A DNA stretch of 62,352 nucleotides, filler included, from Hausera hauseri (taxonomy: Eukaryota), in the NCBI GenBank assembly GCA_046269625.1. It is 9 parts of 9 records of this genome, joined end to end, with 100 filler letters (N's around TTAATTAATTAA, not from the genome) between each part and the next. Parts side by side here need not be neighbours in the genome. Positions count along the whole stretch, not along the records: positions 7,911 to 17,037 come from JBJURY010453245.1; 8 more parts are not named here. One strand, given 5' to 3'. A program made the position numbers and the translations under genes. The notes under the pieces are model-generated. The model ran no database searches. It was not told the origin of the DNA and was given only the letters and a program-made list of their open reading frames with translations. Every line of letters starts with the position of its first letter. Positions within the stretch are counted from its first letter, which is position 1. Positions 7,911 to 41,140 of the stretch are shown in pieces.

Positions 7911-8396
7911 GGTATCATTTCCGCTCCAAATAAATTGACAGGAACAAATCTCGCAAATGGAATTACAGACAATAAATTTCAAAACACCTCATCGAAGGGT
8001 ATATGCAGGCCAAAGGAAATTGAGGCTTTTAGACAATTCCTTGCCTTTCGACGACAACGAACAAATGAGCTAAATCGAGCTATGGCTTCTGTAGTAGATG
8101 ATACGCGATAAAAGGCTCAACGGGAATCTTTACTCGGCGTAAACCATTATCAACAAGTAACAACCCAAATATTTTACAAAATTTGGGGAAGATTTCTGAT
8201 ATTCGGACAATCTGCATCCGGATTCTTAGCGATATATTTCCTGATACAGATGATTAAAGCAGTCATCCAAGCAGTAATTAATGAATACAAAATATTTACA
8301 TTAACTGGATTTTCTAGCAAGATACTGACTGCGATTATAACGCCTTTTGGAAAATTCTTAAGGCATACGAAGAGAATAGATGGAAATCAGACGTAG
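7911..8396 (+). pseudogene. Chuvirus-like (class III, gB-type) envelope glycoprotein, C-terminal membrane-proximal and TM region
   Basis: Manual translation from 7911: ...KGICRPKEIEAFRQFLAF...KIWGRFLIFGQSASGFLAIYFLIQMIKAVIQAVINEYKIFTLTGFSSKILTAII; fits the GIY...W..F..FG..SAG...K....I.GY.L....G.S..L.A pattern of chuviral G; one internal stop. Confidence 0.7.
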
Positions 8397-9029
8397 AACG
8401 TCACGTCGGATATCATAACCGTAAACGAAGAAGAATACCTATATTTTTGCGTAAGCGGAAATCTATAAAGCATATTACACGAAGAAATAATTCGGATGAT
8501 AACGAGCCTAAGGGAGGAGAAGTACCTACAGTAATAAATAGATATAAGGCGTATTCTGTTATTAAAGCACTACTGCCTATGTTACTTCCTACCGCTCCAA
8601 GTTATGAAGATTGTAACAAACGATCAATAAGTTCGTATCAAACGGAAATCTATAAAAGAACAATTAATGTAGAAGATTCTTATGAAGGAACGAAACGTTA
8701 CGGGATCCGACGGAAAATGTGTTATCGACAATCCACAGATGGTCCAAAGATGTTGTATTCTCCCAGAGAACCTTGGAACATAGAAACTAGATCAACGGTT
8801 TGGGATAATCCAAGGTTAAAAACTTTCCAGAATAATGAATTACACACTAATAATTGAGAACCATTAATTAGTACACACGAAGCGGAAGAGTTGCACATAG
8901 AAAATAACGAATTATATCCAAACGAAGAACTAAGACAGCTATCGGCGAATATAGTATCCTTCCTCGTAATCCGAATCAATGGACTCAAAATATCGGCGAT
9001 AAAACGCTTGAAGGATACATCAAACTGTT

Positions 9030-12000
9030 TTGGAACAGTAATAGAAGGACGACCCTTTACCAAAATCATTATTGAGGATCGGGAAGTTTATGCTTAATTG
9101 ACACAGGATCGGAAATGTCTTACATTAAAAATGATTCAATACCTCAAACGCTGCGAGGACACTTATGCCCACCATCCGCGAAAGACCGACGAAGTACGGG
9201 AGCTTTTGTTCAAATGTCAAAACCAATGTTTAAGTGGAACCCAGAAGTTCAGAAATTGGACAATTTTTCCATAATGAGTTTGCAGTTATGGAGCAATTAA
9301 CCGACGACGCACTTCTAGGAAGGGATCTACTAAAAAGACTGTTAAACATAGCAATTGACTTACAAACACGGAGGCTAATAGAAATCAGGTTAAACGTAGA
9401 CGTGAAAAGCGCTAAGGATAGAAAATTTGGAGAAGTGCTAATACCAGTTGACGAAAACATTCCACCAAGAACAGAAATGATAATTTATGCCCAAATACAG
9501 CAAGATGACGATCAACCAGTATATTTTGAACCGAGAGATACGTTAGATCCGAATATATTACTCAGCGATGTATTAACGAGAGTACACTCCTGCTGAGTAC
9601 CAATCAGAATAGCTAATAACGCGCAAACTCCTGTCAAGCTCCATGCTTATACTACTTTAGTACACACGTATAAAGTATCGTCAATAACTATCGAAGAAAA
9701 ACCTTACAAGTATGCTGAATTTTTATCTCATGTCGAAACTAAATTTTCCACTGAGTCCTACTATCGATTTTACGAATTATTATGCCGATATAAATCGATT
9801 ATCGCCAAGAACGAAGAAGATATTGATAGAGTGAAAGCATTAAAACTGACTATTCCGCTCAATAAAAAGCCCTGTTCGAATGAAGAAATAGACTTGGAAG
9901 ACCAAAAGATGCCAAAATGGTATCCGCCGCCGCATTCATTAAGGTCAGAGATAACGAAAGAAATCGAACGAATGCTTAAGGCCGATGTAATTAGGCCCAG
10001 CTATAGATCCTGGTACTCACCAATCCTTATGGTTGAAAACAAAGGTACTACAAAACATCGATTTTGTATTGACTACAGAGCCTTATATAATCTTATTATG
10101 AAAGATTCCTTTCCACTACCGTCAGTGAAAGAGGCTTTAGACCGATTATCAGGAGCAAAATGGTTTACCACTCTGGACTTACAATCCGGATACTGGAAAG
10201 TGGAGATAGAGGACGAAGACCGCTATAAGACAGCATTTAAAACACGCGATGGTGTTTATGAGTTTAATGTCATGCCATTGGGTATTACTACCGGGCCAAC
10301 CATATTTACGAGAATGATGAACAAAATGTTAATTGGACTGGATCATGCTTTTGCTTATTTAGATGACGTGATGATAGCGTCATAAACCGGTGAGAAACAC
10401 TTAAAGGATATTGGACATACACTGATGAGGCTAGAACAAACCGGCTTGAAATTAAATCCAAAGAAATGCAAAAGGGCTTAAAATGCAGTATCCTACCTTG
10501 GCCATATAGTTGGAGAAGGAGGATCGATACCGGAAAAATTATTATTAAATAAAATATCAGATTGTATGGAACTACAAAACCAAAAAGAATTAAGGCGCTG
10601 GCTAGGATTATGCGGTTATTATGCAACCTATATGCCAGATAATTCAAGGATAAACGCATTTTTATATCGTCTACTTAAAAAAGGAATTAAATGGAAATGG
10701 ACAGACGTCAAACAGAAAGCTTTTGATGAGATGAAGCAGATATTAACAAGTGAACCTCTTTTATGATATCCAGATTTTAACTTACCTTTCATAATTAAGA
10801 CAGACGCCAGTAAAGAAGGCATAGGTTCTGAACTAGCATAGAAAAGAGAGGATGAAGAATTAGAGCATCCGATTGCTTATGGAGGACGTTCCTTGAAAAA
10901 GACCGAGAAGAACTATTCTGTTACCGAATTAGAAACTCTAGCCGTAAAAGAGGCACTTCGACACTTCAATGTTTATGCATATGGACAGAAAATTATAATT
11001 GTAACTGACCACAAGGCCGTTACGACCCTAAACGGCAGGGCAAATAACTCAACATGTAGACTTAACAGGTGGATTGAAGAAATCACCAGATATGATATTG
11101 AATTCCAGTATAAGCCAGGGAATAAACATGTAGACGATGATGCATTATCGAGATTAAAGACCAAAACCAGTGCAATTACTGTAATGAAGAGAAGCCAACT
11201 GGAAGAGATAATAGATCATCAACGCGCTTTGACAATGGATAAAGCAATTAAAATTTCGACAGAACAGAGAAGGGATAAAGTCATCCAATAGATTATAGAA
11301 TTTGTTAAAAAGGATGTCATACCAAAAGGACGACAGTTAAAGAAACATTTACACAGACACGGACATAAATATTGCATCTTAAATGACAAGAGCAGTGAAG
11401 ATATTTTATATTACGAATGGAAAGGAAAGAAACTGATAGTTATTCCAAAAGGTTTACGAACCGAAGTACTGATGTACGAACATGATTCATATTTGGCCGG
11501 ACACATGTCTTGGAAGAAAACGCTGGAAAGAATAATGAATAAATACTCTTGGCCTAGTATCTATATTGATTTGAAAAATTGGGTGAATGCTTGTGAAGTA
11601 TGTGCAACTAAACAAAAGAAGACGAAAAATTACATGGCCAAACTAAAACCAATTGATGTACCCGACAGGCCCATGCAAGCCATTTTGATGGACATCGTAG
11701 GACCTCTTCCTACGACTCACAAGAACAATAAATATATTTTGACGTGTATTGATCGACTAACTCATTTTGTCGAGTTGATAGCATTAATTGATCAAAAGGC
11801 AGAAACCCTGGCAGAAACCGTAGTAAGGAGAATTATTTGCCGATACGGACTTCTGACCAGATACTCACGACCGAGGAAGGAATTTCACAGGCGAACTATT
11901 CGAGAAGATCACTAAGATATTCGAAATTGAGCGGTTGACAACTACCGCATGTCGCCCTCAGTACAATAAAATGGTCGAACGGATGAATGCGACCGTTATA

Positions 12001-12530
12001 CGCATATTATCAACAGTAGTAGCAAAGGATCAAAAATATTAAAACTAATTTTCAGAAGGAACTCAGTTTGCTATTAATACCACTCCACACCCGGCAACAG
12101 GATACATACCATTTTTATAATGTATGGACGTGAAGCCGTGTTACCTACGGACTAAGGAATGACGCCATACACGGTCAATCCCAAAGATTTAGAACGAAAT
12201 TTTGCAGAAGTACTACAGATGCGACTGCAAAAGTGTTAGGAAATAGCCAAGGAATTATCCCAAGACTATCAAAAACAGTTTAAAAAACAGTATGACAAGA
12301 AAGCAAAACCGCATGATTTAGAACAATGCAATAGGGTTTATGTACATTACCCAGTAGCCAGAAAAGGCACCTCATTAATATTAACGCGTACAGGCAGAGC
12401 ACCGTACGAAGTTACCACAGTTACGCCAACCACAGTATATATCAGTAAAAATGGAAATGAAGAAGTCATACCGGTACAAAGAGTTGTTAGGACAGAGATA
12501 CGGTCCAATAAACGTTACAGCCTACGACAA
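9030..12530 (+). pseudogene. Ty3/Gypsy pol (aspartic protease, RT, RNase H, integrase), with multiple stops and frameshifts
   Basis: (L)IDTGSEMS and LLGRD; RFCIDYRAL, LDLQSGYW, MPLG, YLDD; KTDAS, NYSVTELE, TDHK; H-x6-H...C-x2-C, MDIVGPLP, IDRLT; C-terminal GRAPY and RYSLRQR. Confidence 0.95.
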
Positions 12531-12559
12531 CGCGAGGTAAAAACGTCCTCAATAGTTGC

Positions 12560-13974
12560 CAGACCAATATCGTACATTCAGATAGTTTTAGCATTATCAT
12601 TAATTGCTTTTTATATTTCGAGAACACAAACTCAATGGTGGTACGATGAATTTACGCTAGGAGATATATACGGAATTCGGAAAAGTGGAATAAAAACGAG
12701 GAACAAACCAGAAAAGGAGGATTAACCCCGAATTAAATTCAAAAACAGGAAGACAATAGGAAGACTACTACAATCTATGGCATTCCATTACTACTCACCA
12801 AACTCCATATGTGTTGAATTTAAGGTCTGGAAACCATTCCGTGATTTCGGGAGATTTCAAATTGTCTTAGACGATGTAACAACAAAAGAAGCAAAGAATT
12901 ATGATTTTGAACCTGGAGGTTACACGCAATGCTGCGACATAGATTTTCGACACACTTATAACGTCACCTATCGCCTGTACTTACCGGACTCATCCGACGT
13001 TTATATTGAAACAAAACCGCAATTTCAGTTGTTTATTCCTGCATGGAACAGACATCATGGGATAAAACCCGACGAAATTCTGCGATCCACCGACCCATAT
13101 ATCCAGCTATTAGACGAAAATATCCAGAAAATTTCTGTAAACAAGGCAAAACAATGCATTCAAGTAGACGCCCGAACAGAGCTAACTGTTAGCCGAGAAA
13201 TTAGTATCACCTTCGAAGCGACAATTGGACCAACTCCGAAGATAGAATATTGTTCTATACGCGTAGATGTACAGCACCCCTATTGCAAACTGCCCGTGAA
13301 CCAAAAGTTCAAAATAAAATTTGACTTATACGAAGTACGACTTAACAAACCAAGTATACAGCTACGAACTTACTATCCAGAAAATAGAATAATGGAAATT
13401 TCAGCGGGAACCACGACCAGAGTCGACCATTAAAGTTAATTTAACTACCCTAACCGTTACAGCGAGCAACATACATATAGCAGAGTTGGAAAGCACACCT
13501 ATCAAATATTCGGCGCACCGGTATAAAATCGTGTTCTTTGTGGAAAAGAAACAAAATTACGATATACACATAAGTTATCGAACAACATATAATAATCAAA
13601 TTGTAACACTATTTAAAAATACTTATCAAACAGAATGAAACTTACTAAAACCACAATCTGAATACATAGTACAAGTGCATGCAGAGAACAAGCAAAAAAG
13701 AAAAATTACATTACGCACCTTAGACGAAATTCATACAGAACCGCACTTATATGCAGATGAAAACAACGAAAACACAATTTTATCTACTACCCAAGCACCG
13801 TTAGAATTAACCGTCTTACCGATTGTATCTATTGTTGCACTATCAACATTTCTTCTCATTATGTTAATTGCGATTTTTCGATTAGCTGCCCAAAACCATT
13901 ATTCCAAGCGTCCTAAAAATTCAGAATGGGAATTAAGGGAATTGGAAAATCCTATAGACCCTATGATAAAATAA
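12560..13974 (+). pseudogene. Type I membrane protein with fibronectin type III-like ectodomain, in frame with integrase
   Basis: Hydrophobic signal YIQIVLALSLIAFYISRTQT right after IN; SPNSICVEF...DIDFRHTYNVTY; canonical FN3 motif LKPQSEYIVQVHAEN (about 13642-13690); TM LPIVSIVALSTFLLIMLIAIF and a short tail. Confidence 0.7.
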
Positions 13975-14019
13975 CCTGACAGTTACAGATCAGGTTATTC
14001 TGTCATCAAACAAAGAATT

Positions 14020-14077
14020 TGTTTTGGTTTAAAACCATCCTTTGTTTTAAGATTAACCTTCATGTTTTTTTGTTCAG
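14020..14077 (+). promoter_or_regulatory. Putative splice acceptor (branch point + polypyrimidine tract + CAG) ahead of the accessory ORF
   Basis: gattaacc...catgtttttttgttcag: a T-rich island in an otherwise A-rich sense strand, followed by a long coding-like frame. Confidence 0.5.
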
Positions 14078-14729
14078 ATTGGTAAGTAATCAAACCCAGT
14101 TGAACCCAAGCCGACTTAAAATCGACACCGAAGAAACTACGAGCTGATTTAGAATCGACACCGAAAACGCTACAAGTCGACTTAGCATCGACGAATTTTT
14201 ACAGAAATATGTGACAGTACGGATCCCAAATTCAAAAGCCGCCTATAGGCAAATCAATACTGAATTACAAGGGAAGAACTTTGTTCAATACGGAAAAGTT
14301 AATGAAATCGCAAACGGTTTGAAAGGAATGAGCGAGGAGGCCAGAGCAGTATACTAGTATGCATGGATGTAGGACAAAGATGCTAGGGCATACCCTTTCA
14401 AACAAATCACTCAATATCAAACGGATAAAGAACAAAAAATATACCTACACGTGGCCGACGGAGAAATTTATTATAGACTAAAAGATCAGAAATGATACTG
14501 TTCACAAGAAAGGCAAAGCCGGTTTAGCACCTTCGTATTTGGCAGTAGGAGCTTCCACGATTACGAGCTAAAATTTCGCGTAGCCGCCTTACCAGTAAAA
14601 TTGATGATCGAAACAACGGAAGAAGAAGTAATACCTACCTCATTGCTACCCTTAGAGTTTAGACAAAGGCCCACGAAAGACGAATATGGCACACATCTAC
14701 ATTCGTTTAGATTGGTAGCCGATGAAAGA

Positions 14730-15250
14730 AACTTCAGGATTGTTGCAAAAACTATGGAGAAGGAGAAGAAAGAAATTATATTCCGATCGAAATATCCATT
14801 CAAGAAGAAAATGTGGCCGAGGTCTATTCGAAAATCATTAACCCGTAAAAGAAAGTGCTAGAAACTTATGCGGAAGTTACCGGGATTAAAAGTGAACAAT
14901 TGAATCATGGAAAGGATTCCAAGTTAGTACAACAAGAAGTAGCACAATGCTTCTATGGATACATCTTAGTGGGATATCAGATAGAGAGGATTATGAAGAA
15001 ATTAGCCATACCGGTAACGTATATAGCCGGAGTGAAAGAGAGATAGAAACCCACCCGACTATTATTAAACAAATGGGAATTAAGGCTAAAGAAAAATGGG
15101 CCATCTACCACTGTCCGTGGAAGGCCGTTTTAAGTTAATGGTAGAGGCCATGACCGGTGGAAATATAAAAATAAGCAGATTGCTCACTGCAAATCAAAGA
15201 TCCCAATATCTAAATGATATAAATGCTGGAATAAAGTGGGAACATGAATG
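14730..15250 (+). pseudogene. REX4/ISG20-like DEDDh 3'-5' exonuclease domain, catalytic residues apparently substituted
   Basis: IEISIQEENVAEVYSKIINP*KKVLETYAEVTGIKSEQLNHGKDSKLVQQEVAQCFYGYILVGYQIERIMKKL aligns by eye to REXO4-type ARVSIVN...VYDKYVKP...T.VSGI.PE.L..G.....VQKEVA..LKG.ILVGH.L.NDL..L. Confidence 0.75.
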
Positions 15251-16199
15251 GATTTCCAGCAACCCCGGGAAAAACCTACGAAATTTCCCCAAACCCGAAG
15301 GACTCAGCACACGATATCGTAAACATTTCGGACCATAATCTCCACCCAGGAATGTCGAAATTAAACCAATATGAAACTAGCAAATAATTATACAAGGATT
15401 GAAAACGGAGAAAATGGAGAATAAAACACGTACAGATAAAAACCCAGCATAAGTTATGGCGCCACCGCAGATAATAATCTATTTAAGATACCAGAAATTC
15501 CTCGGAAATACATAGAAGAAAAACATAGAAATTCAGAGACCGAAACCGGAAAAACAACTAAAAGGAAAACCTCCTTTTTCGATTACCTATTCAAGAAAAG
15601 AAGTAAAGAAGGAGAGAAAAGATTAAAGGAAGGACACAGGCTAGACAGAAAAGATTCAAAACCAACACGACTAGATAAACCAAGACAACCCGCGGAAAAA
15701 CTCTCAAAAATAGACATACAATCCCGCGTTGAAAAGTTCACGAGAAACCCAAGAAACCGGAAGAACAGATAACAGAAATAAACGTTCTACGGAAGAAGAC
15801 ATCCACAGAAGATGTGCACTACGCCACTACGGCAGACTACCCCAGGATGCTATTAGCCACAGAATATTACAGCAAACAGAAGATTAAAGAGGCAATGTTT
15901 TTTGTCAAACTAATGCCTGCCAGACAAGTTTACAAGAACACTTATGTCTGGGAAAATCCTAAGATTGGAAAATACGTTGCTCCGATATTTCAGTCCATGT
16001 GGATAAATCAGTTAAGCTACTACTAAAGAAACAGTACCAAAAATGCCGGTCGACTGGTAAAGTTCCCTATTTAGATCCAGATACTATCAGCAATTAGACC
16101 CTAATAGCCGTTGGATGCGACCCTAAAAAAAGCTCGATAAAGCGAAAGCAAAAAAGAATCTATGCCTACCTATACCAAGATGAGGAAGGCTTGATAGTA

Positions 16200-16526
16200 G
16201 AGCCTATTGAGATTATGTTAAGAGTGGATCTAGATGACGAAAATTGGGTGAGAGAGGAGAACGAATGTCCCGTATGTGAGGCAAATCTGAAACAAGGATA
16301 TGTAGTGTTAAATAACCCAGACTGCCGACATAAATATTGCAGAGACTGCCTAGAGAAATAAACGTTGGATAATGGAAAGACCACATGTCTAGAGTGCCGA
16401 GCTGAAGCTGCCGACCTAAAGTACTACTCAAACGGTAGCTATACCAGAATAGTTAAAATTAAGCCGTACCACAGTTTTAAATTAGAGACGAATACCAGAG
16501 AAAGCCAGCCTAGTACCAGTTCTTGA
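16200..16526 (+). pseudogene. C3HC4 RING-finger domain at the end of the accessory ORF
   Basis: CPVC-x14-CRHKYCRDCLEK*-x7-CLECR (16266-16400); the conserved Trp codon is replaced by TAA, so the ORF track misses it. Confidence 0.85.
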
Positions 16527-16617
16527 CCCAGTCTGAGAACACGCATGGACATGTTGCGTTTGCCTCGCCCTCGCGGCACCTCTCCTGACGCAATGGGGAC
16601 ATCCGAAGATGCCGTTC

Positions 16618-16629
16618 AGGGAGGAGAAG
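16618..16629 (+). other. Polypurine tract (PPT)
   Basis: agggaggagaag immediately before the TGTTACA LTR start. Confidence 0.85.
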
Positions 16630-16999
16630 TGTTACAAATGGTAGATACAATTGATAACGCCGTGAATAAGAAACGCGAACATTGTAAATAATTTATTAGA
16701 ATACCAACATTATAAATAATTTAGTGGAATAGAACTGTATCGTACCACTAGGATATATATATTATTTATGAATGAATAGACTAAAATTTTATTTGTATAG
16801 AATAGTGATAGAAAGAAACGAATGGCGTATAGTTGAAAATAAGAATTAATAATAAATAATGTATAGAATGGAGAAAATAATAGAGTGCGAATTAATAGTT
16901 TATGACGTACCAGACTATATAAAGAAGGCAGTTTGAAAATGAAGACAGAACTTACAACAGCGATTTGGTCGAGTTGAAGGATCAATTTGAATTGTTACA
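16630..16999 (+). repeat. 3' LTR (about 370 bp)
   Basis: Starts TGTTACAAAT after the PPT and ends ATTGTTACA (imperfect inverted termini); TATATAAA at about 16916. Confidence 0.75.
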
Positions 17000-17037
17000 G
17001 ACAGATATTGACTCATTGTGTTATTCTTGGAAACTGT

Positions 17038-17529: not shown

Positions 17530-20500
17530 TTATTTCAACTGCAAATGTCCGTACGCCTAACTCTTATTCCGCTCCACCCACTTACGCTTATCATCATTAC
17601 ATGATAAATCGATTTTTGTATTAGTTACAGTATACAGCTGGTGTTCAATTGATCGGATAATCGTTTGAGACACAACCATTGATTGCCCTCCTTGTCGTTA
17701 TCCATATTCTTCTGCTCCTCCATCATAGCATGTAATAATCACCCTGGTTTATTTCCATCTGGGTCAGCTGAACTTCTTTCGCGCACATTTTTGGTCCACA
17801 GTCCGTCAGAAGACTGTAACACTGGACGCAGAAATATGCATTCCCGATACTGAACCCGACCTTTGCTTTCATCCTTGATTCAGCCAATTGTGTTTGTGAT
17901 AACGTTGCTGTACAACGGATGATTCTGTGATTAGTTGGACGTGTCCAGTAATCCGTCTTCCATTATTTGCCGCAGTAGTTTCTCGCAATTGACGTTTTAA
18001 GTTTGAGGAAGAAACTGTCACTGTCACCGGCAGTTATATTGATCATGCAGCCGTCAAACATTTGCCGCTATCGTGCCAAGTAACAATACTGCAGCTCACA
18101 TCCGTAGTTTGCTCAGATCCAATAGTACCTGTCCTATATAACTTGGCCAGTCCAGTACGACATCTTTTTTGTTTAAAAGTACGGCAACCAATCTATCGGG
18201 AATGTGCGTTGATCGCCTGAACTGAGCCTTGCTGGTGTACGTAACCAGCCGCTTTTTACTTTTTCATAGGCGCATATTGAGCCACTTTTTGAGATTCGCT
18301 ACTGTTTTTCCTTAGAGAGAATTGTTTTTCAGCTTGTAGTAGTCCTTTTCAAACTTGTTGCAAGCTGCAGCTCGTTTTGCCGAATTTCGAATGATGTATT
18401 ATTTGAATATCTGAGCCTGTGAGAATAGAATTGCGCGATGCAATTGTGTGACATGTACACCAAGCTGCATGTAAATTCATAATAGACGCCAACGAATAAT
18501 GTAATTTTTCTTCGGTTCATGCGTCATAAGCAGCTTCTTCACCTTTGACCCGGGTGGACATTGGTAGTTCATCTATGACTGAAAGTTCATCCAGAAAGTC
18601 AAGCAACTCATCTGGTATCATGAGGTCGACTTCCATTAGGTATCCAACTGAGCTGTTTTCTGCCGTGTCTGCTCTCGGCAGATCTTCCAGTATTTAGTCC
18701 AGATCTTCCTTGTAAAATATCCATTCTAATGAACCATACGGCAAGGGTTGCGAAAGCGTCCTGCCCTACAGGTTATTAATGCCGATATACAGCAGTGATG
18801 TAGTATTATAATTGGCAGCAGCAGCAGCACTAACATGATGCATTTTGACAAACGTCATGCCGCCACGAATACCTTCATCAAACAGTAAGTACATTTCTCG
18901 ATTTTGCAACAGCTCAATATCACGATACAATGTCATCAGGGCTGACGCCCAACTCATTTTCGGTATGAAATAAAAGTTGAGTGGCTCCAATCTATCTTCT
19001 TGTAGCGCTTTTATCCGAAATGACTGAAACACATCGGCTAATAAGTATACGCCCGGTTTTAAATACTGAAGCATGTACTTTTAAGCATATGCTTCCAGTT
19101 TTAAGTACTGAAACAGGTTTCTACATCCGAACTATGACAAAAATCCATGTGTTTTCTGCCATTCATTTTCTGTTATACCGGACAAACGCGGTGGTAATTC
19201 TTCTGTCGTTTGAAGCTGCTCATATGATATCAAAAAGTCGTATGGAAATATGCCTTTGCTACGTGCAATATGTACAGGGAACTGTGTTCATGTTAAGGCA
19301 CATCCGGCAAAGCATTTACCAGCTTAGCCAATGATTCATTTAGAAATTGCAATGAATTAAGGAATCGTACCTGGAACCGATTAATACGTACATACAGTGA
19401 TAAGTATTTTTCCATCATAGTCGGAATTACGGATAGTTCCCAGTGCGCAAATCCGCTTATTGCCGATTTAAAAATATGATGACAATCATAACCCCTGAAT
19501 TTATGAAATACCACCGATAGGAAGGGCCGCACACGCCTTGTTAAAATGCATGAATTACATACGGCTCCGAGATATCGACTGGTAAAATGATCGTGATCCG
19601 GTACGAGCTGTTCCTGTGCATCGAACGGTAATATTTTGTGACACAGATAACATTTATTGATAGCTAAAAAAATCAGCTGTTCGCCTTCGTCTGTCCAGAC
19701 CTAGGGTATAGTACAATTATTGCGATACCACGGTGCGATTTTCGCTTCTACTATTGTTTCCAACTGCTGCAGAAAATCGTGAATACAGTTCCAACCATGA
19801 AACACGTAATACTGTGGTTGATCAGTGGCTTTTATTGGAACAACCAACATATCGACAGCGACTGGAACATGTTTTTGGTCATATGCATTGTGCCGTGGTA
19901 GAATAGCTTTGATATTTGCATATACCACATATGCCGGACTGTTTGTTTTTGACCAGTCACGGAATGTGAGTTCCTTTTTGACGGGCATGACGTACATTAT
20001 TGTTCCTGACGAGTTTTGTTTGCGCAACGTCACATATTTTCCCCTGCTGTGTCTGAACTCAAACCATGCAGACATATAGGACACTATTTACACTGTATAC
20101 GCTTTTTTATGAACAAGTCATGGCCCACGTTCAACAGTCTGTCTAAATTTGTCACGGCCACGTAATGGAATTTTTCCCCATCCTTTATCTCTAACAGTAT
20201 AAAATTTAATGAGCGTCCATTCGAGTTCTGACTTCTATAGATTACGTCCACATGAGGATTCTTTTAAATCTCTTCACCTGCCGGTATTTCTACGACTGTG
20301 TTGTACCGGAACACGTTAATTGACAGTGTCCGATTACGCCGTTCAAAAGTCGGAATGGTTTTCAATTTCATCGGCATCCAACATTCATCAACGTACAATT
20401 CGGAAAAATACTGCCGATACTGATTTGGACGATATGCACTATGCCTATCCACTTGGTCATATTTTAACACGGCCAGAATACTGTAAATGAAACAGTATTC

Positions 20501-26745: not shown

Positions 26746-29700
26746 CTTTGGATCACTGTACTTTTTCCATTTTTGGAATGCTGCTCTTAAATTCCTGCTA
26801 ACTCTTACTGCTATTTCATGTAATTTTTGTAATAAATACTGGTGGAATTCTTCACCTTGGTATCGGAGTCTTGGTTTCAATAGGTTGTCTATAGGCAGTT
26901 TTGGTTCTCTCCCAAACATCATTTCGTAAGGGGAAAATTTTCTGCTGCCGTTCTCCATGACTCTTATCACCATTGCAGCTTGACTCAGATACAGATCCCA
27001 TTCTTTCGGCTGGTCTTGTGTATACTTAGCGATAACATCATATATCGTTGAGTGTTGCCTTTCGTTAATCCCGTTTGCTCCCGGATTGTATACTGCTGTT
27101 CTTACATGTTTAAATTTCTTTCAACGTGTCCCGCATAGCTTTGTTGACAAATTCACGTCCATTGTCGGTAACGATTATTTTCGGGCATCCATATCGAGGG
27201 ATGAACTTTTTTAGCAAGATGTCTACTGTGTTCTCTGTGGACTTATCTGGGACAGCATATAGTTCAGGCCATCCGCTGTACACGTCTACTATGTGCAGCA
27301 TGTGTTTGTTTCCTGATGCAGTTAGGGGGTGCGGTCCGGAAAGATCCAAACTTATCTTCTCGATAGGGTAATTCACGTATCCGGTTCTTGTATCGGGTGT
27401 TTTAGCACCTCCATATTCCGTAGTTTGCACATTTCACATTTCTTTACATAGTTCCCAATTTCCAGCAACATATTTTTCCAGTAATACTTTCTACTTATCA
27501 GTTCTGTAGTCCTGTCTCTGCCAAGATGTCCTAATTGGTCGTGATATTTCTGCAATACCATTTGCTTCATGCTTTGGGGTACACACAGCTGAAAATTTCT
27601 CTTCTCTTCTCCACCTACTCGATATAGTTCTCCATCATCTAATATGAATTTTTTCAACTTTTTCTGTGTTTCGGGTATTTCTGATTGTTAGCCTTCAATA
27701 ATGTGCTTTAATTCTTTGTCTTGCTGCTGTTCTGCCTTCATATCTATCTTGTTTTCTTCGGTCTCACTGTTGTCTGTTTCTAATTCTTGGGTTTCGTCGT
27801 GTTTCGTTTTTGCTGGATCAACCACTATTTGTAGCGTGTGATCATCTATTTCCGCTGTGCCTTCTTCTGTCTCTTCTCTCTGGTTGTCTTCCTCATTGTG
27901 TTTGTCTGGTATTCATGACAACAAATCGGCAATTGTGTTCTCAGGGCCTGGAATATATTCAATATTCATATTGTACCCTTGCAAATGTATGATCCACGGC
28001 TGTATCCTTTTGTTCTGAATATCTGCTCGTATCATCGCCTTCAGTGGCATATGATCGGTTTTGATTGTAAATTTGCTATTATGTAAATAGAAATTCAATT
28101 TTTGTAATGCATAATGGATTGCATAGGCTTCTTTTTCAGTCACTGACCATTTCCTTTGCGATTTAGTCAGCCTATGGGATAAAAAGTAGATCGGCTTCTC
28201 CTTGGATATTTCTTTGCCTTTAACGATCTCCTTGCCATCTTCTTGAGCTAATACCGCTCCTATCGCATATTCCGACGCATCCATATATAGCACGTATTCT
28301 TTGTTGACTTTTGGGTACGTTAGTAATGGTACTACAGTTAGACTCTCCTTCAGGTATTCAAATGCCTTTTGACAGCTTTCGTCCCACCGAAATCTTGCGA
28401 ATTTTCTCGTTAGTGCAACTAACGGTTCCGCTATTACTGAGAAATTTGGTATAAACCTTCGGTAATAATCGCATGTTCCTAAGAATCCTCGGACCTCTTT
28501 TGTGGTTTTTGGGGCTGTCATCGATCTTATCGCTACTACTTTTTCCTTGTCTGGCTGTATGCTCTGTCTAGTGATCATAAATCCAAGGTATTTAGTTTCT
28601 TCCTTTAGAAATTCAAACTTGCTTAATTTCAATTTCACTTTATGTTCATGCAACCTGTCAAACACTTTCTCCACATGTTCGAGATGGTTCTCAATGTCTC
28701 CTTTCATGAAGATCAGGATATCGTCGATGTATGTGAGTGCATATTGTTGCATGCCTTCTAATACTATGTTCATTAAAGACATGTAGGTAGCCGGGGATCC
28801 TTTTAATCCAAATGGCATAACATTCCATGCATACAATCCAGTATGCGTGCAGAACGCTCTCTTTGCCTTCGCATCTGGCGACATTTGGATACACCAGAAT
28901 CCTGATCTCGCGTCTAGCGTTGTAAAATAGGTGGTCCCGTCTAGCACTCCTAGAATATCGTCGATTAGTGGCATGGGGTAGCTCACGTTTGCCGTAATAG
29001 CGTTCAGTGCCCTGTAGTCGACGCAGAACCTATGACTTCCGTTTTTCTTCGAAACTATTACTATTAGAGATGACCATTCCGACCGGGTTCTTTCAATTAT
29101 TCCAGCTTGTAACATGTCCTCTATCGCTTTTTCTACAATTTCCCAGTTCCCGAGTGGTGTTCGGTACGGTTTCAAACTAATCGACGGGTGGTCGCCCGTC
29201 TCGATTTTCATTGTAACTGTCTGAGTTCGTCCTAGTTCCATGTCGGACAGCGCAAATACATCGGGGTGTTTGCTGACAAATTTCTCTATTCTTTCTTTGT
29301 ATGCTGGGTCTACTTTTATCGTCTCAAGTAATTTCCTTGTTCTTTCGTTGTCCTGTGTCACTTCTGCTATTACCTTGCCTTGTTTATTTCTCCAAAGTCC
29401 CTCTCGTATTTCTTTTAGTACATTGTCTCTATGTAGTCTTGTCTGCTGTCTCTCTTCCGCTTCTATACTTAATCGTATTTCTGGTTTCCTTTCTCTTTGG
29501 TTTTTTCTCTCACTGTTGAAGATTGCTTCACATTTCATTACTTGTGGTTTTTCTACTTTCGCTACACTGCAGCCTTTTTGTAATGTAATCGTTTTTCCTG
29601 TGTGGTTCGCCACTATCACCGGTATTTCTCGTCTAGTGCTGTTATTGTTATGCTCTCCCCTTCTTGCCAGTATTGGTTCTTCTTCATTACAGCTATCACT

Positions 29701-31358
29701 ATGTTGATCGAGTTCGGTCTCATGGTGATCTTTTGTTTCACCCGTATAATTGAGGCGATGTGGATATCATCTTCTAAGTCCACATATTCGTCTTCTGCCC
29801 TTATTTTCTTTAAGTCGAAGTAGATGCGGGCCTTGTTTTTTCTCAAAAAATCCCTTCCTATGATAGCACTTCTGCACATATTTCTGATCACTGGGAAGTT
29901 GTGTTTCATCGTTTTATTTCCGATCTTAAATTCTAGCTGGGTTTTTCCTAACACCTTTAACGCACTCCCCGATACTGATCTCAGGTCGATATCTTGTCTC
30001 ACCAATCTGCTTGGTCTTTTCAGCATTTTGTAGACCCTTTTGCTGATGATACTTACTTGGGCTCCTGTGTCAATTAGGCATCTTACCCTGACTTTCCCGA
30101 AGTAGATTATGCATGAGCTCGGATCTTCTGTATAATTTATTTCATATCTTCTTTTCAGTTTTTCTCTTCCTTGGTTGTTTCTACAGTCTCTGCTTTTGTT
30201 CGTTGCTTCGGTCTGTGTTCGTAGTTGTTTCCTTTCATTCGTTGTTGTTCCATTCGTTGTTTGGGCCAGGGTCGTTGTTCTTTGGGTTTTGGTGTATGGT
30301 TGTTAATTTCCTTCTTATAATTGGGAATGGGTGGGACTTGACTTTGGAGTTTGTTTTCTGTTTCTTCCTTGGTGTGTTTCCTGTTTCTGGTTTCATCAAT
30401 TTCCATTGGTTCTAGTTCTTGTCTTTTGCGTTCGTCGTTGCTTCTGTTTCTATGATATTGTATATTTTTGTTTGTTGTTCCCCTTCTGTTTTGACAGCGT
30501 CGTTGCCTCGTACTTACTGATATTTGCTTTCTCTTTTCATCCTCGCAGTATCTTTGTCTCGGTTCTCTAGGTACTTGGTAGGGACATGTTGCTTCTTGGA
30601 TTCAAGTTTCTTTTCGTCCTTTCATATTTTCTACTGTTCGTTTCTTGGTATGTTCTGTACTTATCTCTGTTCATAAATTCTCTCTTGTTATCTCTTCTCG
30701 GGGTTGCCATTCTATAATTTCCTTCTTTTGGTTCTCTTCGTCTCATAATTCTGGTTTCGTATCTGTCTGTTTTCATCTGTGTTGGTCTAATAGCTTCGTT
30801 TCTGATTCCCCTTGGCTTTTTCCTTTGACTATAGTACTCTGTGTTATGCTGACGAGCCCTTTCTCTTTGCCTATTCTGTATGGGGTTTGCTCTACTTCGA
30901 ACTTCTTGCTTCGCTCTCTTATTTATACCGTTGATTGCTTCCTTCGGCTCCCTACTTCGCCAGAAGCTCAGATCAAAGTGGGGTTGCCGTTTCCCTGCTG
31001 TGTCTGATTTCTAACTTCTCTTGTCTCATTTGTGTTGCTCGGCCTGCAAACTCTCGCAAGGTGACCTTCTTTGCCAAATTTGTAACAATTTTTATTATTT
31101 CCCGTCTTCGGTCCAGTATTATTCGACTTTGCTGTTTTGCTTCTGCATTCTCTTGCTATGTGCCCTATTTTCCCACAACTGAAACACTGTGTTCTCTTCT
31201 CAACTTCTTGAACTAACTTTCTGTCTTCAGATCTCTTTTCTCTGTGTCATTCATGTTCTAGTGTTCTTCTGTGCCATCTCAGACGGTACTGATCCACTTC
31301 CATCTGTTCTTCACTTCTGTCGTCGTACTTTTCTTTACCTAGTCTCATATTTACTCTT
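26746..31358 (-). mobile_element. Ty3/Gypsy retrotransposon internal region (low-complexity gag-side region, PR, RT, RNase H, IN), mildly degraded
   Basis: CLIDTGAQVS (about 30052-30084), RFCVDYRAL, MPFGL, YIDD, DASEYAIG, TEKEAYA, TDH, HDQLGH...CEMC, DLSGP, TDNGREF. Confidence 0.95.
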
Positions 31359-33200: not shown

Positions 33201-34830
33201 TCAGCCGTTTAAGACACTGGGATTAGAGGCAACTATACCTGGGACGACTTTTGACTGAAAGGATTTGTTTTCATCGATGGGTTTAATTGCATGAAGTGAA
33301 CCTTTACCAGAAATCGGGATTATTTTGATATCTTTTGAAACGATTTGCGTTCGGATATTGCTACTCGATGGAATTGTAATGACAATCGACGACTGATGGT
33401 CGTTTTGTGAATCAATTTCTGTATTCAACAAAGTCGGCATACCACTAACACCGTTAGGACACAATTACTGTTCAAGTTTAGAAGTTCTAAAAGTAGAGAA
33501 TTGGAATTTAAAAAGGAGTCAGATCTTTATTCAACAGCATTTCTTTAACAGAATTTGACGCTCGTCGGATTTCCGGAATGCACGTGCTAAGGTCGTAAAA
33601 TTTATTGGGAAGTACGTTTTCATAATTTTGAGTCGTATAATCGAGTAGCAATTTACTAACGTTTTCTTGAAACCTTCTAACTCGTCCTTCTGCTTTTAAG
33701 TTCTTTAGATCCGGTTGCATTAGTAACAAAACTTTCAAACACGAGAATTCTCGAATATCAAATTTCAGCCGTTTTAACTTCTGAGTCATGCTAAGAATAA
33801 ATGCAACGATATCTTTAGTACCTAATTCACAGGCTGCATCGAGATTAATGCATTTTCCAGATGTCAAATGGATTTCTTTGGGATCACCCAAACTGCGGTA
33901 ACAGAAGTCCAAAATAAGAAGATCCGACCAGCAATTTTGCACGAGAAGAATCTAATCGTCTGTATCGACAGCCGAAAACTCTGGTAATGATCGCTATTAT
34001 CGTACCATTCGATGTAATCGTTGCTCGGCCAGTTTTAGTAGAACTCTATAAACAGTCAAATCATCATCTTCAATGACTGGCCCGAGAACGTCTTCTTTTT
34101 GAGATGACGTTTCTTCAATAGCAACAATATTTTCAAGAATCGGCATCATGCTTGTCCGGCCTCTAGAACTTAATGCTCTATGTAAGCTGCCATTAGACGT
34201 TCGAGTAAAATCAAAAGAATTAGTAGTGGGCTGAGGAGCACTAGGCGCTGTGAGAGTATTACTACATGTATTTGAACTGATCTGAAGAATATAATTAACG
34301 TATCTCTGAGATTCGATGGAATCTGCTGTAAACTTCTGAGAAATTTCATCACTAGATGATTCGGGAAAATTATATCGATTAATTCTATTTCGTGCACTAG
34401 GATAAAGACTACGACCACCGCGTGATCAATCATTTCTAACTGCCTCTATTCTCATCCCTTTTTCCAAGCACCTTTGAAATCGACAAGATGGACATTTTTT
34501 TCTAGTGTGCTTATTGATAGCACATGTTTCACTACCAGACTGCTGAACATGACAAACATAATCCATATGGTTTTGAACACTTTTCTTGAAAAATCCCTTA
34601 CATGATTCGCAACAAAAGATTCCATAATAGTAACCGCTTATAGAATCCTCACAAATAGGACAATGGCCCATGTGGGCATATTGACGAACATATTGCTGGT
34701 CAGACAACATTTCTCTATTCTGAAAGTAATGTGCTTTTGCAACTTTTAAGCGTTTCGCACAGAGTAGGCACGAACTCCATAACGTGTTTAGTTTAATAAC
34801 TTGTGTAATTGTAGTCTCTGCACTCTTCAC
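33201..34830 (-). pseudogene. Hr39: NR5-family nuclear receptor (HR39/FTZ-F1-beta-like), intronless, with nonsense codons and a frameshift
   Basis: [29 protein letters not shown]...[26 protein letters not shown] (FTZ-F1 box); LBD QNCWSDLL; AF-2 SLLLELL after a frameshift. Confidence 0.8.
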
Positions 34831-34849: not shown

Positions 34850-37800
34850 TGAACACAGATAGATCATGGATGATCTAACGATAAGAAGTGCTGAAGTTGG
34901 GAATGAAGAGAAAAGAGAAGATTGTTATCCTTGATCAATTCTTCCACACAATCTTGGCGGGAGATCGGGGCCCGCCTATGGACCCGACGCGTCGGCAGCG
35001 GAAACCCGGCTGTGCCCAACCAAATGGACCAGAGGGCGGTGGTCGATCTGGGAACATCATCATCCCCCCGTGGCAAAGTTAAAACTATGAAGAGTAAAAG
35101 AACAGAGAGAAAAAATCGCAAAACGAAAAGTGTCTGTGTCAGCTGATCTTAGTGTGAACAAGACGTTGGGTATCTTCTATTGATTTTACCCTGCTATACT
35201 TGCTGAATGTGACTCTGCGTGTTTTGTCTTTATGCGATGTGTTTGTTTGCGGAGATTAAAGTTGGGGAAAATTTGTGAGATTTTTGTGTAGGTTTTGTGT
35301 CGTGCGAAGGTAAATCGGAATAAAGAGAAGAGGAGGGCGGAGAAGGAAGAGGGACTGTTGAAAAAGGATGGTTAAAGGCATTGAAAATAGTGTTAGAAGA
35401 CGAAATAGTGATAAAAGGTGTAGTGGCGGATAATGGAACAGAGGAAAAAGTTGGAGTAGAGATTGGAATTGAATTGAATGAAAGAGTGGAAGAGGAAGAT
35501 GATACAGAGGGAGTGGTAGGAATAGAAGTAGATAGTGTAGAAAATGATGGAGCAGGACTAGGAGCAAAAGAGGAAGGTGGAACTGATATAGCAATAGATA
35601 TAGGGATAGCAGGTAGTGGAGGAGTGAGAAAAGAGGTTGACGTGTCGGTTGGTAAGGTGTCGTCGACAAAGAAAGCGGGCTTTAAGTTGGTAATGTGTAC
35701 TCTAAGTTCTTTGCCGTCTTTAGAGATAATGGCGTTGTGTGAGTATAGCTGTATCATTTTATAGGGCCCCAAGTACCGTGGGTGGAAACCCCAAGGCGCC
35801 TGATTCTTTAGCCATACGAATTTTGCCGTGTACAAATCTTCGTGTAAGTATGTTTTATCTTTGTGAAATATCCTAAAGAACGAATCTTTACTCACCTCGA
35901 CGAAGTGATTTTGCGCTGCCCGTATCGTCTCATCTGTGGGCGTGTCGTCCATGGCGGTTAGTTCAAATAATGATTGGACAGGAGCTCCGAATAAGACTTC
36001 AGTAGGTGAGCATCCTGTAAAAGTGAACGAAGTGTTCCGCCAACCAAGCAGAACGAACGGAATAAGATTCGTCCAACTACTGTTGAACTCTGCGAGAATT
36101 CGTAGTGACGTTTTCGATGTTTGGTGGAAACGTTCTAGAATGCCATTCAATTGGGAGTGATAAGGCGTAGTATGTATATGATGGGTCCCCAATTGGTTAA
36201 CAATAGATTTGAACAGGTTGGATTCAAACTGTGGACCCTGATCCGTGAAGGTAAAACGAGGTGATCCAAACCTGTTAATCCATTTATGAATGAAGACGTC
36301 AACTATAGTGTCGGTGTTTGTGCTCCGCAGAGGGATGGCTTCTGGACATCGCGAGGAACGGTTTATCATGGTAAGGATGAATTGATATCCGTTGTCTGGA
36401 GGAAGAGGGCCGACGATGTTGATATGCACGGATTCGAAACGCGATGTGCAGGGAAAGTGGAATAGTGGTGGCTTTAAATGATTAGCTGTTTTGTATTTTT
36501 GGCAAGCCACATACAACTTAACCCACGCCTGCATATGAGAACGCATTGACGGCGAAATTACTTGTCGATGGAGTAAACGAAAGGTGGCTTTAGCACCAGA
36601 ATTGTTTAGTGCATGCATTCTGTGAAATGCTTGCCTTTGCAATGATGGTGCTAGAATTATTACGGAATGGCCTGGTTTGGAAGTGTCTAAAGCCACGCCG
36701 TCAACGAATGTGCAAGACTTAAAAGAATTAAGCATTTCCTGAGATGACTGGTTCTGTTGAAGTTGATCTTGCGTAAAATCGGTGAAAAATTAATCGAACT
36801 AACCGACCTAGATAAAAAATCGGCAATTAAATTGTTAACCCCGTTAATGTGTTCAATATCGAAGTTAAATATCTATCAGTATGATATTTGTCGTTCTTGG
36901 CGTGTGGAAGGGTATTTCATAGCCATGATGTTAAGTAAGGACTTGTGGTCGGTTTGTATAGTAAAATGACGAGCGACAAGTAGGTGGGAGAAATGCTTTA
37001 AAGCGAGAACGGTGGCCAATAGTTCTCAATCGAACGTTGAATATCTGGTTTCAGGGGATATTAGCTTACGAGCAAACAATTCTAGTGGTTGATTTTCTCC
37101 CTTATAGATCTGGTGGAGTACAGCGCCTGCTGCAGTGGTTGACGCGTCTGTCGTAAGGTTAAGTTCTGCATCAGGCTTGGGAAAAGCGAGAATATCAACG
37201 GTCTTAATTTCTTCGCGTAACTTATCAAAGTTTTCAACCAATTCAAGTGTCCACTGGATTGGCTGATGTTTTTTTGCCGCCGCTTAGGTGTGCGAATGAT
37301 TCTGTCAATTCGGAGCAATATGGTACATATTTATGTACAAAGTGTAGTGTACCAAGGAAGCTGTGCATTTCGGTGGTTGTAAGTGGCAACTGGATATTTT
37401 TAAGAGCTTCGACTCGGTATGGTTGGAGGGGAATGCCCGTCTGGTGTAATAACGTGGCTTAAAAAGTTAATGCGCTTTTTGGAGAAATGGAATTTATCAA
37501 AACTGATTTGGAGATTATGGTGGTTAAGGCGTTGGAATATTGCGCGAAGGTGTTCCTCGTGTTGTTTGGCCAAAGATGAAACGACTAGAATATCATCGAT
37601 ATAAGGGTGTGCAAACAGGAAATCTAAAAGAATTGAATCAATGTGCCGCTGAAAAGTTTGTGCGGCATTCCTCAAACCGAATGGCATAAACAGGTATTCG
37701 TAGAGACCAAAAGGAGTAGTGACAGCAGTTTTTCTATGTCTTCTGGTGCCACCGGTATTTGATGGTGTGCTTTAGCTAAATCAATGGTCAAATAGATGGT

Positions 37801-40345
37801 GGTTGAATTAAAATGATACAAGATATCCTTGATGAGTGGTAAAGGGTACGCATCTATGATTGTCAAGTTATTCAGCTGTCGGTAGTCACTGAATGGTCTA
37901 AAAGTACCGTCCTTCTTTGTACAACGTGTAGAGGTGATGACCAAGGAGATTTGGAACGACGTACTCTGTCGGCACGTTCTAATTCAAGAAATTCAGCTTC
38001 TACGGCCTGTTTACGACGAGGTGACAGAGGTCGTACCTTTTGGCCTATTGGACGTTGATGCTGTGTAACTATGTGGTGTAAAGTACTGTTTGCTGGAGTA
38101 AACGTACGATCTTTTTAAGTACGCGTGTACATAATGTGTTGACGAATTGCTGTAAAGTTGTAGGTAACTGTAAGAGATTTGGTGGAAGTGGTGAAACGGC
38201 TTGAGTAGTAGCAGATGCAATTTGTGAATTGTTGGCTATGTGCAATAAAGTGGTATTTGGTGTAAGATGGTCGAATTGAAAATGGTGTTGAATGAAGTGA
38301 TTTTGTCGAATGAATTAACGTTGGTGGCAATACCACAATTATCGACATCGAACCTCAGTCGAATATCTGTATTAGTATTTAAAAAATTACGAATTGAATT
38401 ATTGTTATGAAAATTTGAATTATTCATTGATTTTGCCAAGATTGACCTCCGCGTCCCGGTCGACTGCGCGGTAGTCGAAATGCTATTGACATGCTCAGCA
38501 ATGTCGCTATTGGTGCCATTCCTCAAACATCGCTGACTGCAGTCAACCAATAGGTTATAATGTGATAGAAAATCGGAACCAAGAATTGCCGTCTGGACGT
38601 TAGCGAATGTGAACGTCCAGTAGAAAGGTGAAGGAAATTTTAGTAAAGTGAAAGATAATTTAGCCATGCCAGAAATGTGCAGCGGTTGACCTGAAGCGGT
38701 GTATAAAGACTTAATTCTAAATGGAGAATTTTGTACAGGAAAGGTTCGTGGTATTAAAGAAATCGCTGCACCTGTAGCGGTGAGGAAATCAACATATTGC
38801 GTTGTAAGAGCGGTGATTGCAGCCTTTAGAGTAAATACAGCAAAAGAGACGTGTCGGCGTTCAGAAAGTGAAGTAGTGCCTTTTCCAGAGTTTGCCGTGA
38901 CTTCTGGCAGCGAACTTAGGTTTTTTGAGCGGGTGAACTAGGACGAATATTAGAAGGAAAAGTAGTACGTCCATCATTCGTATTTAATTTGAAAGTGCAA
39001 CCTGGAATGCATTTACGAGCTTGGTTTTTGAACCGTGCATGGTAGATGCAAACAACGGTTTCCGAAGAAAAACTCTTGTTATAAAATTTGCACCCTAGGC
39101 AGCACTTCTGCGCACTCGCGTTAAATCTGCTGTGATAATAGCAGATCGACGAACGCACAGGCGATGGTGAGCGGTTTCTAGACGCACAACGAACGCGGTC
39201 AGCGAAAAATCCCCTCGGCGGGACAGAAAAAGTTCGTTTAATTTATTATTAATATTGTTGATTGTTGCGTGTACTGCAATATTTTCAGCACGTAGCTGAT
39301 TAAGCTGTTGTTCTACTGATGTGTTATTGGCTTGAATATCGTTAGTGGCAACTGCTGCCGAAACAACTGATGGGGAATTTACGTGTCGAACGTCGTGTGT
39401 CCTATGGGCTAATTCGGCCAATTTCTTCAAAGACGTGGAGTCCTCCACCACGGTAAGTAGAGCCCGGATTTGGATAGGTAGCGCATTGAGGAAATAGTGG
39501 CGCAGTAGATCTGTATTGTGTTCTGTAGTGACGCCGAGGGTATGTAGATGTGCTAAAGAGGTGCGTAAGAATTCTGATTATCATTGGGTGCCTATAACGT
39601 TGTCGTGGAAGAAACGTTGTATGATCGTGTCCATGGAAGGTTCTGTGATCTTAAGAACTGCGTTGAAAAGCTGGGGATATGGGTCAGGAAGTTCAAAGAT
39701 TTTGATGATGTTGTGAATGCGTGTTTTGATGTTATTAGGGAGTAAGAAGAGGAGATTATGTGCTTTAGTTAAAGAGTCAGTAATGTTATTTGCCTCTAGC
39801 CATAGTTGATGAAATTGCAACCAAGTTTTTCTGGAGCCTTGGTTGTCAATAAAGAATACGGTGCAGTGGGGAAAAGGAGCGGAAGAGGTAATAGGTGAGA
39901 GGTTGCTAGCAGGGGTAAGAATGGGATTTGGAGAAATATGACAGGTTTTGATTTTGTGGTAATTTTATCCGTGGTGTATATGTTTGGCGATGAGTTCATG
40001 CCACCACGGGTACGGATATGTATGTGGAGACAAGTATGGGTTGAGAAAGATGGTAGGGTTCCGGTGAGGGGTATTATAGAACCGTTATATTTAAGATAGA
40101 AATCGGAAGATTTGAGTAAGAAATAAATGAAGGTACGAAGGGTTGCAATATGTAAATGTGATGTAATAAGTGTGTATATGTGCTTATTATTTATGAAAAG
40201 GAAAATAGAGAATTGGAAGGTAGTCTACCTGGGGACGCGCTGTGGGGCCGACGCGAAAGACGCCGTCTGACCGACCCGTGCAGGGTTGACGGCCGGGACC
40301 TCAGCCTAGTCGCGACGGGCCACAAATTGCGAAGTGGCCGAATTT
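34850..40345 (-). mobile_element. Near full-length CsRn1/Boudicca-like Ty3/Gypsy retrotransposon (gag with double CHCC, PR, RT, RH, IN with Ser/Pro/Thr-rich tail), degraded
   Basis: CYYH...C...C and CIYH...C...C; ILGSDFL; MPFGLRNAAQTFQR, YIDD; TTDAS; TDQGPQFES, ERFH, YLGPY; PPT-like ggggggatgatga before TGTTCC at 35056. Confidence 0.92.
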
Positions 40346-40369
40346 CCCCTCAAAAGTGCGGCCTTTGTT

Positions 40370-41140
40370 ACTCGGAATTTCTGGATTGCTATCATGACAT
40401 CTCTAGGCTTAATTTCACCGCGATAGTTCATGACAATCGATATGAATTTCCCTTTATTTGAGCCGGTTTTAGTCATTTGGTGATCTTTCGAGGAGACACC
40501 TTTTATAATCTCTTCGATCGATGGACTGGCATACTTAAATCGTGTTTGGTGCAGAATTGGAGAATGACTCATTATTTTGTGGTGTATCTTTGGGTACGAT
40601 ATTGAATTTTTATGTATTTCTTTCAAACCAGTATTCATCGTTGTTTCAAATTGCGCTGATGTTGTAGATGAGCTAATCGTTATAGATGTTATTCGATTGA
40701 GATTAGGATAATATGGTGAATTCATGAACAATAGATATTTACAAACATCATAAAGAGCTTCATTATCAAAAAGTATAGACAAATCACACGTATCTAGTGT
40801 TGTATGACTATGGAATACGCTATTCTATAGCTCAACAATCGCAGTAGACATTATCAGGCTGGGAAATAATTCCAATTGTATTCGGTTTGTTTTGGGGTAA
40901 TCAATGGCTAATTGCTGCATTATCAACGCAGCAACTCTAGACCCGTACCACCACCCATACTGTTAATGACGATAAATGCATCCAAATTATTCGTCATTTC
41001 AGCTAGTTTAAATAGTCGCGGTCGAAACAATCTTACCAGTCGTACACCAGGATTGAGGCTTCCTCGCGCAAAATTGTTACCTGGATCTTCACAGTTAGTA
41101 ATCATTGATTCTCTGCTAAAAATATTTCGATATGCTCCAG
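40370..41140 (-). pseudogene. tuba: Divergent alpha-tubulin fragment, frameshifted
   Basis: EDPGNNFARG, SMGGGTG, FDNEALYDVC, YPNLNR, YPKIH, YRGEI.P.DV. Confidence 0.85.

Follow-up and report, generated by a model that had tools for sequence, protein, structure and literature searches.

An extra gene at the end of an enveloped Ty3/gypsy element

The window, meaning the whole 62,352-nucleotide stretch of Hausera hauseri DNA analysed here, contains eight artificial joins (at 7811, 17038, 21988, 26646, 31359, 41557, 48865 and 56209), each made of 44 N, TTAATTAATTAA and another 44 N. The joined contigs are unrelated, and adjacency across the linkers is therefore meaningless. We found that most of a single, decayed Ty3/gypsy element lies on the + strand of the contig at 7912-17037. 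In it, the end of a gB-type envelope (env) gene is followed by a protease-like motif, reverse transcriptase (RT), RNase H, integrase, a membrane-protein-like open reading frame (ORF), an extra gene, and a purine tract with TGT (Table 1). By its order of protease (recognised by eye), RT, RNase H and integrase, the host element is an env-bearing member of Ty3/gypsy. Its gag and 5' LTR fall outside the contig, which begins inside env, and the env fragment covers positions 468-614 of the 653 in Monjiviricetes_fusion. A 179-residue open frame without a Pfam family occupies 8318-8857, in the interval between env and protease. Decay of pol amounts to 6 stops in 872 codons across 9234-11850. The ORF directly following integrase gives weak fibronectin-III matches under the Pfam cut-off (Interfer-bind, E 0.019; fn3, E 0.095), and is a second membrane-protein-like frame in an element already bearing a gB-type env. 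The terminal sequence from TGT to the contig end has no second copy elsewhere in the window (blastn, contig against window).

With Ty3/gypsy pol upstream and the purine tract and TGT downstream, the location inside an LTR element that the earlier note on 14730-15250 had proposed for its exonuclease-like domain is borne out. The domain itself is also real, but that note omitted both the breaks in its frame and its membership in a longer gene that ends in a RING finger.

Table 1. Features of the element-bearing contig, with the motif places of the exonuclease-like domain
Feature	Position	Strand	Evidence and remarks
Class III (gB/chuvirus-like) envelope glycoprotein, C-terminal fragment	7971..8408	+	Pfam Monjiviricetes_fusion E 2e-18; upstream of pol; truncated at contig start 7912; 2 stops
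Asp-Thr-Gly, likely aspartic protease site	9100..9108	+	By eye in translation; without Pfam match
Ty3/gypsy pol (RT, RNase H, integrase zinc and core), decayed	10038..11852	+	Pfam RVT_1 E 8e-32, RT_RNaseH_2 E 6e-32, Integrase_H2C2 E 5e-17, rve E 2e-4
Decayed membrane-protein-like ORF directly 3' of integrase	12570..13974	+	Hydrophobic start, beta-rich middle, hydrophobic segment at ~13810-13880
Broken extra gene, 3' end of element	about 14010..16634	+	Homologous end to end to P0004; several frame breaks
N-terminal domain of extra gene	14187..14720	+	39% to P0004; P0004 vs P0010 54%
DEDDh-derived pseudo-exonuclease domain	14730..15251	+	One stop, three frame breaks; mid-gene
ExoI places	14750 (N), 14756 (G)	+
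ExoII place	14990 (I)	+
Inferred ExoIII places	15183 (L), 15198 (R)	+
Poorly conserved linker	15260..15760	+	Best local scores 28-43 to P0004
Conserved unnamed region preceding RING	15763..16260	+	45-46% to P0004
C3HC4 RING finger	16266..16397	+	Pfam zf-C3HC4 over cut-off; 62% to P0004; stop at 16359
Purine tract and TGT	16618..16629; TGT at 16630	+	Sequence; likely polypurine tract and 3' LTR start
Likely 3' LTR or flank	16630..17037	+	Truncated at contig end

The longer gene can be read from an unbroken relative, the 870-residue protein P0004, which tiles 14187-16634 as six pieces in three frames (tblastn, E 1e-60), five of them at 34-45% identity and the sixth, of 13 residues, at 69%. P0004 carries the N-terminal domain, pseudo-exonuclease, basic linker (net charge +12 over residues 421-568), conserved unnamed region and C3HC4 RING in that order and in one open frame, so the pseudo-exonuclease and the RING are fused in a single unbroken protein. 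All eight zinc ligand positions of the RING are kept, in RING spacing. The N-terminal domain has no credible family match in Pfam, PHROGs, NCBIfam or the Atlas, and its comparison with an AlkB profile of seven bacterial sequences only gave 0.07%, that is, no match.

Two relatives of the whole gene were found, each as one record: P0004, from a contig of 16,242 bases, and P0010, a 333-residue fragment from a contig of 12,445 bases. The translated motif at the end of P0004 is that of the window's purine tract, suggesting that the P0004 gene also ends at an LTR; from this one terminal motif we infer that both relatives lie in LTR elements. Their hosts may belong to one and the same group. Word-index searches added no further relatives, with none among 24 longer candidate proteins when the window piece was the query, only P0004 itself among 2655 when its residues 60-440 were used, and only P0004 and P0010 among 6348 with the family alignment. 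No related loci were found in the viral contigs or JGI metagenomes scanned.

The window copy of the extra gene is dead and without remaining function, with 10 stops in 680 codons over five aligned pieces. Within the domain there are a stop at 14846 and frame breaks at 14748-14749, at about 15037-15040 and between 15075 and 15105. The stretch is listed for one public sequencing run and for no RNA data. From that run, 3302 contigs match 13900-16950, including 143 at 99% identity or more, 506 at 95-99%, 1163 at 90-95% and 1490 under 90%; since most (2653) are under 95%, the element is part of a large, diverged repeat family. Other contigs differ from the window copy at the domain's stop codon and at two frame breaks, and these breaks thus look private to the window copy. 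At the five motif codons there are no differences among 40 of the 1358 difference rows, which decides nothing about copy variation there. Immediately beside the extra gene, the summed depth is 12,000-15,000, compared with mostly 400-2,300 over it, or about 10-fold higher at 13900-14100 and 16552-16653 than over the gene, although depth is not copy number, and loose contig ends lie at the gene borders (14056, 14088 and 16573). Possibly, an abundant family variant lacks the extra gene or has other cargo in its place. After 16654 the depth drops to 5-8, so that family coverage ends within ~25 bases of the purine tract and TGT and the remainder is nearly unique in the run. The context, the RING fusion and the copy number rule out an intact host REX4 gene.

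Other mobile elements left traces on the remaining contigs. Fragments of protein-primed-type DNA polymerase B lie at 1-579 and 19293-19700, the second with an endonuclease VII-like match, suggesting Polinton-like relics. Further retroelements include a gypsy protease-RT-RNase H (27913-30302), an integrase (35230-36789) and a LINE that encodes endonuclease, RT and an ORF1 with a zinc knuckle (51026-55812). Pieces of host genes encode a nuclear receptor ligand-binding domain (33508-33951) and a tubulin C-terminal domain (40306-40824, near a retroelement), and one repeat occurs as two copies ~86% alike on separate contigs (37611-40121 and 59856-62352).

Ancestry and catalytic positions of the pseudo-exonuclease

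The scaffold pattern that had been read from the domain, V.GI..E.L..G.D...VQ.EVA....G.ILVG, is indeed kept and lies at 14750-15040. The middle piece of the domain (14792-15046, one stop) gives a sub-threshold match to Pfam RNase_T (E 0.016) and has weak matches to SDN1, PolC and ISG20 among 11 PDB matches at E up to 10. Searched against 1.84 billion protein representatives, it gave 18 matches, 14 with RNase_T, one named an exonuclease by its source, the two whole-gene relatives, and P0006, whose Sushi repeats make it a chance repeat match that we set aside. In the database proteins P0002, P0003 and P0005 (733-804 residues; P0003 is labelled Clastoptera arizonana), the N-terminus is hydrophobic and four REX4-like domains stand in tandem, most of these domains having degenerate motifs.

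Profile-profile comparison matched the family to REX4-like proteins at 96.6% (E 7e-10, 98 columns), a value inflated by the choice of REX4 rows for their similarity to the query; likewise, the 60.6 bits of the window piece against the REX4 profile were given no weight, since that query had chosen the profile rows. Sources that the query had not selected agree, with matches to DnaQ (8h18, E 7e-5), PolC (E 8e-4) and a phage exonuclease family (E 1e-4). Among them too are the ESM Atlas features, by which P0004 residues 235-425 match two RNase_T clusters (0.92 and 0.91) and an arenavirus nucleoprotein (0.90), with 167 shared features, slightly below the 170 usual for same-family matches. When the ExoI-ExoII half of P0004 was aligned with each of three REX4-like proteins, none of 1000 shuffles reached the score. 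The expected ExoIII half is not above chance in the same comparison, as 46-594 of 1000 shuffles score equal or higher for P0004 and 400-918 for the window piece. Judged from these comparisons, the ExoI-ExoII half, about 90 residues, evidently descends from a DEDDh exonuclease; a chance motif is ruled out by the agreement of several independent libraries.

Which DEDDh family is nearest depends on how the question is put. As a single query, the window piece recovers REX4-like proteins, and REX4/ISG20 proteins are the best single-sequence matches, consistent with the REX4/ISG20 label first given to the domain. On the family profile, however, bacterial DnaQ (24 bits) and PolC (21) score equal to or better than SDN1 (16) and ISG20L2 (12), so that the label is narrower than the evidence. 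The structural match that had been suggested as a check was obtained in part. A model guided by ten REX4-like rows has a mean pLDDT of 50, is confident for residues 26-93 of 194 only and mostly falls under 50 after residue 93. Foldseek places ISG20L2, DnaQ, ISG20, PolC and SDN1 at the top, at ~4 A over 81-91 columns, which is partly circular because the model was REX4-guided and does not bear on ExoIII, but at ~14 A or worse over the full length. Sequence and fold homology together support a DnaQ-like beta-sheet core for roughly the first 90 residues. Folded as a single sequence, P0004 reached pLDDT 31, too low for use.

At ExoI, the earlier note had read FRIVAKTM, a string that crosses the frame break at 14748-14749; the homologous frame instead gives N-Y-G-E, and the absence of the catalytic D and E holds nonetheless. 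P0004 has N-T-G-E and P0010 N-L-A-E, compared with D-C-E-M in REX4, so in all three sequences D and E are replaced, by N and by G or A, in the REX4 register. In the DnaQ alignment, whose register is offset by two, A and N occupy these places and are likewise non-acidic. The reading of the ExoII HND place as ERI agrees with ours, with the catalytic D position occupied by I (14990-14992) in the window and by M in P0004, the two sequences that reach the site; P0010 stops short of it. For ExoIII, the proposed L...R corresponds to a plausible register, but it lies in the C-terminal half that is not above chance against REX4. We favour this register by eye, as L-x-A-x-x-R/C-S placed by spacing, since it keeps the H...DA spacing and the small residues. 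A second register reads F...E and puts a conserved E at the Asp place. Thus, of the five catalytic positions that were all said to be replaced, three are demonstrably so and the remaining two, those of ExoIII, likely are. Since the ExoI loss (3/3) and the ExoII loss (2/2) include the unbroken relative, catalytic loss predates the decay of the window copy, and decay of that copy as its cause is ruled out.

We consider it very unlikely that the domain keeps nuclease activity through an active site that was rebuilt or shifted. In favour of this, all three sequences have an E-x-E pair behind the ExoI Asn, a P-I-E motif is invariant, the second ExoIII register offers its Glu at the Asp place, and for Maelstrom a switch of active site has been proposed (PMC2628886). 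However, the first ExoI Asp, whose ISG20 equivalent (Asp11) is described as binding both metals (PMC9157404), is N or A in either register, and the ExoII Asp place is hydrophobic in 2/2.

Conservation of the domain and its possible roles

Between the window copy and P0004, the two halves of the domain are 37% and 41% identical, compared with 39-62% for the N-terminal domain, the region preceding the RING and the RING itself, whereas the linker is barely alignable; between P0004 and P0010, identity in the domain is 57%. That the domain is conserved like its neighbours, and the linker is not, suggests past selection on the domain in this family. Moreover, the three element sequences agree at 23 of 76 shared columns, of which only 7 are likewise constant across three REX4 rows; the family therefore has conserved residues of its own. 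The C-terminal half of the domain, unlike REX4 yet 41% conserved within the family, is as expected if the domain was remodelled and then held. The view that the changes do not reflect random decay therefore stands at the level of the family, in which P0004 lacks the ExoI D/E, the ExoII D and, in the favoured register, the ExoIII H/D, and P0010 shares the ExoI loss, but it does not apply to the window copy.

Alternatively, the domain could be a structural leftover serving as a spacer between a working N-terminal domain and the RING, or the whole gene could be a dispensable passenger, a reading that we consider doubtful. It would account for a domain conserved less than the RING, and for the depth and loose ends that hint at abundant variants without the extra gene; in the account of rotifer elements, extra ORFs show no clear departure from neutrality (PMC5408684). 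Against it, an 870-codon open frame persists in a relative about 60% diverged, and 16 of the family's own invariant positions lie in the first half of the domain.

Because an unbroken distant relative lacks the same catalytic residues, the domain likely binds rather than cuts. The reading we prefer, and to which we give an even chance, is that it would be a non-cutting recognition module that delivers a target for ubiquitin tagging by the RING in the same protein. In such a scheme, an ancestral element would have captured a DEDDh gene whose catalytic function disappeared early and which selection then maintained. The RING, predicted to be an active E3 ligase, would mark for degradation a host defence protein or RNA-protein complex bound by the dead pocket or surface. 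PML also carries a RING. In PML-I, the DEDDh domain is catalytically changed and the C-terminus promotes proteasomal loss of L1 ORF1p, as reported in PMC10123124, and a RING with other ubiquitin-related domains is described in planarian Burro elements (PMC6431247). The higher depth outside the gene, with its hint that many copies do without it, counts against this recognition-module reading. Moreover, domain and RING are about 320 residues apart, so the two could act separately.

An RNA-binding or decoy role had been proposed in the earlier note. Acting without the RING, the domain might shield the 3' end of the element RNA or sequester host decay or piRNA factors, an explanation that we find unlikely while still taking it seriously. 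Nucleic-acid binding by a dead DEDD domain is established for Bombyx Maelstrom (PMC4408791) and PXL (PMC13659232), the most conserved block of the domain here takes in the loop preceding the GI motif, with an invariant Tyr, and a basic linker follows. On the other hand, Met14 and Arg53, which are described as touching the ribose 2'-OH in ISG20 (PMC9157404), correspond in the family to E or a gap and to Y. The net charge of the domain is +1 compared with +5 to +10 in three REX4 domains, while PXL is described as needing a positive surface (PMC13659232), and the RING of the same protein would be left unexplained.

Comparison with known systems and significance

One parallel is ORF3 of the LTR retrotransposons Juno and Vesta of bdelloid rotifers. 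There too, gypsy-like elements have an additional ORF on the 3' side of pol that belongs to the DnaQ superfamily of exonucleases (PMC5408684). However, the rotifer ORF3 is of DEDDy type (RNase D-like) with DEED intact, and no RING is mentioned in its description there (PMC5408684), whereas the domain here matches DEDDh families, not DEDDy, and has been stripped of catalytic residues and joined to a RING. In nematodes, bryozoans and flatworms, GAG-ENV-POL errantiviruses with HSV/gB-type env share the position of env upstream of Ty3/gypsy pol (PMC13524379). In contrast to the ~4 kb of extra ORFs that follow pol here, the main text and supplements searched mention no exonuclease or RING ORF in those elements (PMC13524379). 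The giant planarian gypsy elements Burro/GYPSM1 have env between gag and pol and carry ubiquitination-linked cargo that includes a RING-type motif (PMC6431247), but this cargo (BIR, BCL2, MATH, ankyrin) belongs to one 4,900-residue polyprotein, and a dead DEDDh domain is not part of the description given there (PMC6431247).

Among host proteins, PML-I likewise contains a dead DEDDh domain, the C-terminal PXL, and PML-I is connected with the control of retroelements through the ubiquitin-proteasome system (PMC13659232, PMC10123124). It is described as a host restriction factor with TREX/Plex9 kinship and a basic binding surface (PMC13659232, PMC10123124), while the gene here is on the side of the element, and the likeness holds at the level of the superfamily. 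With REX4, ISG20 and ISG20L2 (PMC9157404), the best single-sequence matches, the domain has the GI..E.L..G.D and ILVG scaffold in common; it differs in its replaced catalytic and ribose-contact residues and a C-terminal half that is not alignable, and DnaQ and PolC match about equally well. A DEDDh domain is also cargo of an invertebrate transposon in KolobokD (PMC9587614), which is, however, a DNA transposon, with a domain like those of Exuperantia, TREX and ERI1 that is presumed active (PMC9587614).

Retrotransposon gene capture, exonuclease cargo and RING-type cargo are thus known already, and the variant added here is a catalytically dead DEDDh-RING fusion. No dead DEDDh-RING gene of an LTR element came up in the literature searched, which contains few subscription papers and does not extend to Repbase entries. 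The extra nuclease ORFs of LTR elements in print are intact enzymes whose role is unproven. Known counter-defence proteins of animal LTR retrotransposons are few. A stably dead DEDDh-RING fusion would show that such cargo was converted to a tool for binding or degradation, an idea that can be put to the test with P0004, the unbroken natural protein. In its most specific and rather unlikely form, the proposal is that this enveloped gypsy lineage may have its own counter-defence E3, in which a captured and disarmed RNA exonuclease would recognise a component of host RNA surveillance or the piRNA pathway and have it destroyed. If true, the extra gene would mirror PML from the side of the transposon and would be the counterpart, in an animal retroelement, of Vif-like accessory proteins.
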